A DNA stretch of 40,960 nt, taken from a virus (lineage: Duplodnaviria > Heunggongvirae > Uroviricota > Caudoviricetes). Shown one piece after another: positions 9,001-12,000 of this stretch; the stretch's first letter is position 1; each line of letters starts with the position of its first letter. Made by a program: the position numbers. The stretch covers positions 1 through 40,960 of the IMG/VR virus record IMGVR_UViG_2534681674_000028; one strand, written 5' to 3'.

Positions 9001-12000
9001 CGAAGCGTGGTTAACGCATTCAGCCGCCCCCTCTCTTGATTCTATCCGCGAAAACCCAAACAACGGACGCTCCATTTCACAGGTTCGCGCCGCGATTCGA
9101 TCCGGGAAGTAATCTGCATGACATATGAAGTCATCATTACTCCTGAGGCCGAAGAACAAATAATCAACCTGCACAGATATATAACGGAGAAAGCAGGGAA
9201 CGTCATTGCTGACAATTTTGCCAATGCGCTTCTTGATTATCTTGATGGGTTTTCTACATTCCCGCATCGGGGCAATAAACGCGATGATATTCGCCAGGGG
9301 ATGCGGGTAACTCATTTCCGCCACAGAACGATTATTGCTTTTGCCGTTGATGGCAGAAAAGTCTTTATTGTCGGTATCTATCATGGTGGGCAAAGTTATG
9401 AAACCGATTTCTTATAAACTTTTACCCACATCATTCCGGTGTTAGAATTAACCGTCCGCCCCCATCTCTTACTGGCGGATTCGTAGGCTATATAAATCAA
9501 AGATCCCGGCTCATGTTTGTGTCGGGATCTTTTTTCGGCGATTTATCCCCAGCGGCAAATCGAATACACCACCAGCGCCACCGCCATCGCAATTCCTGCC
9601 GTTGTGAATGCTTCAGGCCAGGTCATCGTAAAATATCCTCCACGCTTATCAGTCCGTTCCGCTCCAGATAACTCATCGCCTTATCCGGTAATTTGCAGTC
9701 TGGCTTCGCTTTCCTCAGTTGCCAGGTTAACTGCTTTACCAGCATGGTTAACTCATCGGCCAGACGCTGATATCCCACTGGTTTGTATTCATGCAATTTA
9801 CCGGCTGGCTCTGCTGCCAGCGATACCAGTGCGATTTCCAGAACAGCAATATCCATCTTATATGTGCGGATGATGTCATGGTCGATTGTGCCCGGTATGT
9901 GAACCGCCCCGGGTTTCCTGGAGAGTATTTTATCTGTGAACTCAGGCTGCCAGATCATTATTTCCGATGGAAGCATAATAAGCTTTTTCTGCTTCTGCCG
10001 GAGGAATATGGCCCAGCCTTTCCAGCAATCGTCGATTGTTATACCAGTCCACCCACGTTAGTGTGGCCAGTTCCACTTCTGTCCGGTTTTTCCAGCTATT
10101 ACGGTGTATTACCTCCGCTTTGTAAAGACCATTGATGCTCTCAGCCATCGCGTTGTCATACGAGTCGCCAGTACTCCCTGTTGATGCCAGTAATCCGGCT
10201 TCCTTAAGCCGCTGCGTGTAGGCCAGCGATACATACTGAGAACCTTTATCACTGTGATGGATTGTGCCGGACGGCCGACGGGCCCACAACGCCTGCTCCA
10301 GTGCATCCAGCACGAATGTTGTTTCCATGGATGATGAGACCTGCCATCCCACGATGTATCCGGCGAACACATCAATGATGAACGCCACATAAACGAAGCC
10401 CTGCCATGTGCTTACCCAGGTAAAATCAGCCACCCACAACTGGTCTGGACGTTCTGCCACGAACTGACGGTTTACGCGGTCGCATGCGGCAACGGCTTTC
10501 CGGCTGACGGTAGTGCGGACCTTTTTACCCCGGAGAACACCGGCAAGTCCCATAACTGCCATGAGACGTGCCACAGTGCATCTGGCCACTCTGATACCTT
10601 CCCGTAACAACTGACGCCAGACTTTACGCACACCGTATACCTGGTGATTTTCATCGTATACGCGCTGTATCTCTTTCTTCAGCCAGTCATCGTGCTGCGC
10701 ACGGGCACTGCGTTTATCCGGATGATGTCGCTGTTGCTGACAATGGTAATACGTTGACGGGGCAATATGCAGTTCGCTGCATACCGGTCCGACCCCGTAC
10801 TGCTCACGCAGCTTATCCAGCAGTGGCATCATTTTTTTCCAGAGGCGGTCGAACTCCGCCTTCGCAAAATAAGCGGAAGCCTGGCGAAGGATATCGTTAC
10901 TGCGGCGCAGTTCACGATTTTCACGTTCCAGCTCTTTCAGACGCTGACGTTCAGCGCTGGTGAGCCCACCATCACCGCCCCCGGTATCCCGCTCATGCTG
11001 GCGAACCCAGACACGCAGAGTCTCCGGCGTACAGCCAATCTTTGGGGCAATGGAACAAATTGCCGCCCACTGTGAGTCATATTCATCCTGACTTTCCAGA
11101 ACCATACGAATCGCCCGCTGACGGACTTCGGGGGAAAAACGAGTATTTTTAGTCATCCTGTTTACCTCTTTCTCAGGGAGTTTAGTCTCCAGGATTTCCG
11201 GGGCGGTTCAATGCACAGTCTCTGTGCTTCAATAGTCTCCTCTGCGTGAGCTATTAACTGCTCTCTGGTAAAAGTCGTCATGCCGCGTTTCCTTCTTTCT
11301 TATTAACAATTACACCGTCATATATTTCATTAAGGTGCCCTCTCAACTCCATGCGCCTTAATGCAGACAACATGTAATCGCATTCAACCTGCTTATTCCC
11401 AATAAAAGGTTTATCTTCAGGGTTACCCCAACAGCAATTCCCCTTGGGCCACCCATGTACTTTCCGTACGCTTCCGTTAACAACGTGAAGTAATCCCCAG
11501 CCAGGTGGTAAATCCTCAATTGAAATAATTCCCGGCTCACTAATAAAGAATCGCCAGTCGCCCATTCCAAGAGACGGATTTTTACGAAAACGCTTTTTTC
11601 TATCTGCCAACAAGTCAGCACGAGAACATTTCGCCTCTATCAGGCATGATGCTGAATTTCTGAATCCCATAGCATCTGGCTGTTCTCCGGTACTGGTTAC
11701 AGCTATAAAGCGGTCATGAAAACAAACCTTGAACCCGTTGCGCTTAAGGAACTTGTACGCAATCTGACAGAGTTCGCGGTGTGTTAACGCCATATCACTC
11801 TCCTTTGATGCGAATGCCAGCAAGCCAGTTTCTTATGCCGATATATTCAGCGTTCCTGAAACCGCTTTTTACATATATAAATGGCAAGCGAAGATTGTGA
11901 CCATTGACTGCCAGGTAGTCTTTACAACCCTGTTCGGTGAAACAGCAGGTAACGAATTCATCAATATCTTTCACAGCAACGCGCCGCCATTTTTCTGGTG

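Follow-up and report, generated by a model that had tools for sequence, protein, structure and literature searches.

Membrane microproteins of bacteria and phages with fewer than 50 amino acids (aa), including KdpF, AcrZ, MgtS and the products of intergenic small open reading frames (smORFs) in Enterobacteriaceae, have in common a single hydrophobic helix and a tendency to be missed by annotation pipelines, and a sizeable fraction of candidate smORFs overlap or abut a neighbouring gene by 1-4 nt (PMC11188072). We describe here an open reading frame (ORF) of 27 codons that is like them in length class, in its hydrophobic helix, in having been passed over by annotation and in its overlap with the preceding gene. 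It lies in a 40,960-nt stretch of DNA (the window) from a tailed virus of the Caudoviricetes (IMG/VR record IMGVR_UViG_2534681674_000028, positions 1 to 40,960), downstream of a 114-aa gene that is split by an IS629-type insertion sequence (IS) and of a gene for a 171-aa protein with the fold of PD-(D/E)xK nucleases. A described system close to the latter is MmcB, a PD-(D/E)XK endonuclease that protects Caulobacter from mitomycin C (PMC9578287). Unlike the named small proteins, to which it has no sequence similarity, the 27-aa peptide is phage-borne, and its ORF moves together with a Shine-Dalgarno (SD) sequence as a cassette behind different genes. Taken as a whole, the locus is probably a lambdoid accessory block with a coupled gene for a membrane microprotein, a gene for an MmcB-like nuclease fold and the IS-split 114-aa gene. 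A previous look at this DNA without any database search (the sequence-only reading) had pointed out a nuclease-motif ORF, an IS-split gene and a 27-aa ORF, and all three are present in the sequence on the minus strand; while its observation is confirmed, its interpretation is supported in part.

That the 27-codon ORF truly encodes a protein, and is with it a widespread micro-gene that has gone unannotated, seems credible, judged from how the sequence varies among its copies. These were collected with a degenerate DNA pattern that fixed several codons, left 11 free and ended at codon 26 with the stop unconstrained. Among the 135 copies matched in this way (32 protein and 53 nucleotide alleles), 134 are exactly 27 codons long. 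Read in frame, the copies have a ratio of nonsynonymous to synonymous polymorphism (pN/pS) of 0.32, whereas the other two frames of the sense strand give 0.99-1.12 and 1.85-1.88. Variation gathers at third codon positions, 23 of 27 of which vary, while first and second positions are variable at 12 of 27 sites each (positional entropy of 0.62 versus 0.29 and 0.22). Substitutions exchange one hydrophobic residue for another, and the two ends of the peptide (M-x-W-P-E/D...Y-S-x-C/F-R-W-G) are kept in alleles down to 59-67% identity. Loci that were picked solely through the 114-aa gene carry the intact 27-codon ORF in 73 out of 78 cases, and an ATG start with an SD sequence is found in every context examined.

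The peptide itself is predicted to span a membrane once. Its Kyte-Doolittle hydropathy (1.98 for the best 19-residue window, at 6-24, and 2.0-2.4 for the helix) marks one predicted transmembrane helix at residues ~6-24, which is flanked by an acidic N-terminus (WPE) and by a C-terminus, Arg-Trp-Gly, that holds the single Arg, and which has a face of small residues (G11xxxA15, A13, A17). The sequence-only reading was right in seeing a hydrophobic peptide with a single (predicted) helix and an ATGA-coupled start, as the overlap is there in the sequence and the helix agrees with the hydropathy profile. No credible family for the peptide emerged from Pfam, NCBIfam, PHROGs or PADLOC, where the best matches had E values of 0.02-0.15; one of them, to KdpF (E 0.024), stayed below the cut-off and was judged to be noise from hydrophobic composition.

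The ORF is conserved in related prophages and is also found in P1-like plasmids, its length and frame recurring too widely for chance. It occurs, by tblastn, in 94 phage records, including 933W, VT1-Sakai, VT2-Sakai, BP-4795, Min27, ArgO145 and the P1-like SJ46, and the degenerate pattern retrieved it from more than 120 IMG/VR viral contigs and from 7 genome contigs, 5 of them from Escherichia or Shigella and 2 tiny ones that we took as contamination. With a sensitive blastn search, the region was located in 1636 of the 5426 complete E. coli genomes (~30%), at no more than 7 places per genome and with 163 places on plasmids. None of the 11 records inspected has an annotated feature on the ORF. 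Protein databases, queried with two alleles joined into one sequence, hold only aberrant forms of at least 29 aa (all named "hypothetical"), in which the stop is lost, the start is extended or AM/AV repeats lengthen the helix in frame; a length cut-off by which gene callers remove shorter ORFs would produce this picture. Variants P0388, P0418, P0424-P0426 and P0430 have their helix expanded in frame by AM, AV or LV repeats and reach 29-42 aa, and in P0149 a frameshift or deletion has joined the 114-aa gene and the peptide into one reading frame. A programmed frameshift joining the upstream protein to the peptide was considered and dropped, as inspection revealed no slippery heptamer before the overlap. 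Salmonella phage SJ46 (P1-like; L139, 1201-1275) has a shorter version of 24 codons, MSWPEAFAIVGVAMAIAAIFIFWG.

What lies upstream of the ORF differs between phages and comprises at least five unrelated genes, i.e. those for DUF551 proteins, the 114-aa family, L0139 of 933W, an EaA-type protein and a protein of the P1-like SJ46. In nearly all contexts the start of the 27-codon ORF overlaps (ATGA) or abuts the stop of the upstream gene with the SD sequence kept, and the 12-15 nt ahead of it (GGAGGTGAATCAATGA), SD included, are conserved in most of them. Unrelated upstream proteins consequently share a C-terminal EVNQ (or VNQ/MNQ; loci L003, L006, L008, L009 and L138), as the conserved ribosome-binding region of the micro-gene doubles as their final codons. 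In O157 FRIK2455 the block of homology coincides exactly with the ORF. Downstream, the contexts vary as well, with a hok/sok locus, xis-int or one of several hairpins following. The SD sequence and the ORF would, in our model, travel between phages as a small cassette that is recombined onto the 3' ends of unrelated accessory genes, and the ORF would be translated by coupling alongside the phage early genes.

These features are best read as those of a microprotein that crosses the membrane once and whose translation is coupled to that of the upstream gene; the 27-aa peptide would be made by the phage and inserted into the membrane. Its topology may be N-out/C-in, with the acidic WPE outside and Arg-Trp-Gly in the cytoplasm, and the small-residue face (G11xxxA15) would suit packing against another membrane helix. 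Based on the acidic N-terminus, the single C-terminal Arg and this small-residue face, we envisage that the peptide may bind or modulate an inner-membrane protein of host or phage in lytic development. The more far-reaching idea of an unrecognised family of phage membrane microproteins, carried as SD-plus-ORF cassettes with an EVNQ tail and hitting a host inner-membrane protein early in lytic development, is put forward tentatively as possible, on the doubtful side. If it is true, superinfection exclusion, altered transport or division and conditional toxicity are candidate actions for a family whose carriers include about one in three complete E. coli genomes along with the classic Shiga-toxin (Stx) phages. 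Stx-converting and lambdoid prophages have been closely studied, and yet none of the records inspected annotates this conserved gene, which is too short for the cut-offs of gene callers. Its translation would add a membrane-active early product to these phages, and the ORF would then illustrate neatly how a micro-gene and its ribosome-binding site can spread by recombination as one unit.

Several points weigh against this view. As the pattern behind the allele set fixes several codons, pN/pS is biased downward, and on the 11 pattern-free codons the ratio is 0.56; in addition, the wobble-aligned antisense frame, most of it open, has a pN/pS of 0.33. The copies differ modestly from one another and, with many of them being recent recombinants, the alleles cannot count as independent. 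Some 5% of the copies are broken, and in Shigella phage POCJ13 (L137, 1201-1281) codon 3 has changed from TGG to TAG (W3 to stop), which leaves a probably dead copy; phages can therefore do without the gene. Neither the searchable full texts nor the supplements of ribosome-profiling work on enterohaemorrhagic E. coli (EHEC) and of a survey of Enterobacteriaceae microproteins contain the peptide strings, and keyword searches of the literature brought up nothing specific. Both the N-out/C-in topology and the inner-membrane partner are properties that we infer rather than observe, and the 171-aa protein, for its part, has no Pfam match.

How else might the ORF be explained? The sequence-only reading had likened it to small membrane toxins or lysis-type peptides, which, as Hok/Gef, TisB and holin-like peptides do, would depolarise or permeabilise the inner membrane. 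Like the Hok/Gef type I toxins the peptide is small and hydrophobic with a single predicted helix, it sometimes neighbours hokW/sokW in Stx phages (the ORF being ~170 nt upstream of the hok/sok locus in some of them), and expression solely with repressed early genes might render toxicity tolerable in lysogens. However, hok/sok is just one among several downstream contexts, and unlike Hok/Gef the ORF has neither an antisense RNA nor a leader or mok-type arrangement nor a promoter of its own and is instead coupled to an upstream early gene. Antisense to it, we found no promoter-like site and no RNA family (none at or near 9400-9700), the sole promoter-like site being outside of the ORF at 9421-9448 (+). 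Ala, Gly and Val make up much of the helix, outside of which only E5 and R25 are charged, and the peptide ends in R-W-G without the charged tail one might look for in a holin or lysis peptide. It matched no toxin family in PADLOC, Pfam or NCBIfam, is distant from the lysis cassette (lysozyme and lysis genes lie past Q, close to the window's low-coordinate end), and its spread over as many as 7 places in a genome and onto plasmids also speaks against toxicity. A stand-alone toxin is thus not favoured by us, and the toxin or lysis-type suggestion, which these comparisons do not support, appears unlikely.

Another option is that the conserved 85 nt act in cis, be it as a recombination linker, as an RNA structure or as a ribosome-positioning spacer by a terminator, so that the peptide is irrelevant. 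This could account for a block that sits exactly at mosaic joints, often with a hairpin within 6-14 nt downstream, and that spreads nearly identical between contexts (98.8% identity). It does not account for the three-base periodicity, the frame-specific pN/pS and the kept length, ATG and SD sequence, nor for diverged alleles (59-67% amino-acid identity) that keep the hydrophobic pattern and the WPE...RWG ends; the downstream hairpin, moreover, is sometimes missing. As for RNA structure, there is no conservation or covariation in the region of the ORF, where the single-sequence z-score is -1.04, the consensus fold has 0 compensatory pairs, no Rfam family matches and nothing stable or covarying was found beyond the terminator hairpin. 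To our minds, a cis element is quite improbable. Selection might also act on a frame of the opposite strand, for instance the antisense ORF 9517-9873 (+) or "ORF C38" of phage Stx2 II; one GenBank record annotates such an ORF, and the wobble-aligned frame with its low pN/pS has an in-frame stop in 1 of the 53 alleles. That low ratio, though, is the mirror of sense-strand selection one would expect, because third positions coincide, and an open frame is expected from composition, since the antisense codons of Ala, Val and Leu rarely yield stops. In 9 of the 14 commonest contexts the stretch from the nearest stop to the module offers this frame no ATG, GTG or TTG; the ends of the frame shift with the flanks, and it would run antisense through unrelated genes. 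With pN/pS equally low on both strands, it is the start codon, the SD sequence, the module boundaries and the lack of antisense starts on which our choice of the sense strand rests, and we consider an antisense gene highly improbable.

Besides the coupled membrane microprotein that we prefer for the 27-codon ORF, the block encodes the nuclease-fold protein. The sequence-only reading had given it 181 aa and a PD...ExK-like motif, of which the motif has stood and the size has not. The ORF does reach 181 aa from a TTG, yet the ATG at 11793, giving 171 aa, is likely the more plausible start, because it follows the upstream stop by 1 nt, is preceded by an AAGGAG SD sequence and is where the homologues begin. 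The motif reads PD40...E53-A-K55, and in an alignment of 25 homologues, some with as little as 59% identity, residues D40, E53 and K55 and their spacing never change, nor do D27, E37, R58 and D60. An AlphaFold2 model of the 171-aa protein, with a mean predicted local distance difference test score (pLDDT) of 86 and a predicted template modelling score (pTM) of 0.82, has the alpha-beta-beta-beta-alpha-beta core of the PD-(D/E)xK fold, in which D40 is placed ahead of strand 2 (41-45) and E53-x-K55 closes strand 3 (48-54). Matches in BFVD include proteins named MmcB-like, and a profile-to-PDB search aligned the stretch D...IExK-x-SR-x-DF-x-AD to 3dnx (E 0.19), which we take to be a member of the Pfam MmcB-like family. 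By structure and motif, then, the MmcB-like group supplies the nearest structural neighbour and shares the motif that follows ExK. In Pfam, 25 aligned members of the 171-aa family drew no MmcB-like model at E<=10 and only sub-threshold matches to Hjc, and 10 remote relatives behaved likewise. Because no Pfam model was reached, we place the protein in the PD-(D/E)xK superfamily nearest to the MmcB-like proteins, not in their Pfam family. Its most likely place in that superfamily is the MmcB-like branch, as a metal-dependent DNA endonuclease of putative activity. Compared with the MmcB-like nucleases (MmcB from Caulobacter and SPO1766, structure 3dnx) it has an extra C-terminal region (~residues 100-155), and unlike MmcB it is encoded by an accessory gene of prophages, for which we know of no SOS regulation.

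Homologues of the 171-aa protein are common in Enterobacterales prophages, and all are named "hypothetical" and lack a Pfam domain. An exhaustive profile search with the family returned 3345 cluster representatives at E<=0.001, so that the protein belongs to a large phage and prophage family of PD-(D/E)xK proteins, thousands of cluster representatives strong, that has no Pfam model. In RefSeq, the Prokaryotic Genome Annotation Pipeline (PGAP) calls a homologue a 179-bp "frameshifted" pseudogene even though the 171-codon ORF is intact, as seen in CP027766 (L004, 3902-4080) and CP017436 (L005, 2849-3027), and thus mislabels it in at least two genomes. A nuclease-fold gene and an IS disruption are in themselves ordinary prophage content.

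Removal in silico of the IS and of one repeat restores an in-frame ORF of 114 aa that is 96-99% identical to intact genes elsewhere, with intact 114-codon copies in phage ArgO145, E. coli RM11911 and E. coli 2013C-3342. The sequence-only reading had proposed a gene of roughly 115 aa, split and inactivated by the first IS629 copy; the split is borne out by the inverted ends of the element and by the ATG duplication and the length is corrected to 114 aa, while inactivation follows from the insertion falling after codon 24. The 114-aa protein is restricted to Escherichia/Shigella prophages and has no credible family in Pfam, NCBIfam, PHROGs or PADLOC. It is a mosaic of a conserved C-terminal module of ~58 aa and a variable N-terminus, which ends in an "IALASLAAEP" linker that is common to Eaa/DUF551-type proteins. 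Modelling gave nothing but helices, at low confidence (pLDDT 72, pTM 0.41), and a structural search with this model had no significant match, so we assign the protein no function. A hybrid ORF from an ATG at 9976 inside the IS runs into the 3' fragment of the gene. The IS would separate the 27-codon ORF from its normal upstream translation, with loss of coupling, and from transcription; sitting upstream of Q in the early operon, it may also be polar on late-gene activation.

The element has the hallmarks of IS629/IS1203 (IS3 family) insertions in EHEC prophages: 41-nt imperfect inverted repeats at its ends that start with TGAACCGCCCC, a 3-bp direct repeat (ATG) on its flanks, an ALIL frameshift pseudoknot (10758-10875, Rfam RF01497), and the Pfam domains HTH_Tnp_1, HTH_21 and rve (DDE). 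What the sequence-only reading had called IS629 copy 1 is indeed of IS629 type, with the correction that it differs from the two further copies in the window, with which it shares 96% identity. The product of an orfA-orfB fusion is normally made only through a -1 frameshift. Unlike the usual element, the copy here is 1311 bp long and forms a single 404-aa ORF at 9942-11156 (-), orfA and orfB being fused because the slippery run near 10830-10836 has one extra A (7 A instead of 6). This A7 run is either a mutation that fuses the transposase frames or a homopolymer sequencing error. The nearest RefSeq copies (1310 bp, 99.9% identity, none identical) are annotated as IS3-family transposase and come from O26 and other Shiga toxin-producing E. 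coli, and the exact junction between IS and gene is absent among the 5426 complete E. coli RefSeq genomes. The disruption is routine decay of EHEC-type genomes. Two further IS629-type copies, ~96% identical to copy 1, are present at 26657-27967 and 30570-31879. The former (copy 2, 1311 bp) has a CCC duplication and an extra T that splits orfB into 193-aa and 149-aa parts, and the latter (copy 3, 1310 bp) has canonical frames of 108 aa and 295 aa with flanks that do not match cleanly.

Features of the accessory block and its surroundings, in window coordinates.
Feature	Position	Strand	Basis or remark
Ead/Ea22-like gene, 294 aa	11795..12679	-	Pfam PF13935, E 7.8e-36; stop 1 nt ahead of the nuclease-fold start
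171-aa PD-(D/E)xK-fold gene	11278..11793	-	mechanical ORF reaches TTG 11823 (181 aa); motif D40, E53, K55
IS-disrupted 114-aa gene, 5' fragment, codons 1 to ~23	11214..11281	-	ATG overlaps nuclease-fold stop (ATGA); intact homologues
Target-site duplication ATG, right copy	11211..11213	.	sequence
IS629-type element of the IS3 family, 1311 bp	9900..11210	-	inverted ends, Pfam, Rfam; transposase reads in the operon's direction
Target-site duplication ATG, left copy	9897..9899	.	sequence
Disrupted 114-aa gene, 3' fragment, codons ~24-114 plus stop	9623..9899	-	hybrid ORF from the IS reads in
Shine-Dalgarno sequence GGAGGA	9636..9641	-	9 nt 5' of the 27-aa ORF start; sequence
27-codon ORF plus stop, predicted single-pass membrane microprotein, MTWPEAFTTAGIAMAVALVVYSICRWG	9543..9626	-	ATGA overlap of its start with the 114-aa gene's TGA stop
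G+C-rich inverted repeat, 14-nt arms	9500..9531	.	between the converging 27-aa ORF and parE; inverted-repeat listing, fold
parD/parE type II toxin-antitoxin pair, convergent	8792..9417	+	Pfam ParD_antitoxin, ParE_toxin; PGAP annotation of relatives

Judged from relatives of the flanks, the window derives from a lambdoid prophage, with the block placed between the replication genes and DUF968-RusA-Q, i.e. in the nin-type part of the rightward early operon; the genes of the block all lie on the minus strand. We picture the region as the distal end of the accessory-gene block of this replication-to-Q operon, in which the order would run from the Ead/Ea22-like gene through the genes for the 171-aa PD-(D/E)xK-fold and the 114-aa helical proteins to the 27-codon ORF and a hairpin that is common to it and the converging parDE pair. 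This hairpin resembles a terminator whichever strand is read, the plus strand having a T6 tract and the minus strand a T-rich tail that is weaker, and a simple terminator scan did not pick it up. The arrangement of parDE and the 114-aa gene also occurs in the int-proximal arm of ArgO145 and in the nin regions of other prophages. Elsewhere in the window, Rfam matches at 4063-4333, 4453-4512 and 20635-20686 comprise AgvB (an anti-GcvB small RNA) back to back with STnc100, a weak tRNA-like match and DicF, the last of which adjoins the leftward early genes. Between two Ea22-like genes, finally, a 161-aa ORF (12676-13161, minus strand) matches models of type II or orphan DNA methyltransferases (PADLOC MTase_II, E 1e-73).

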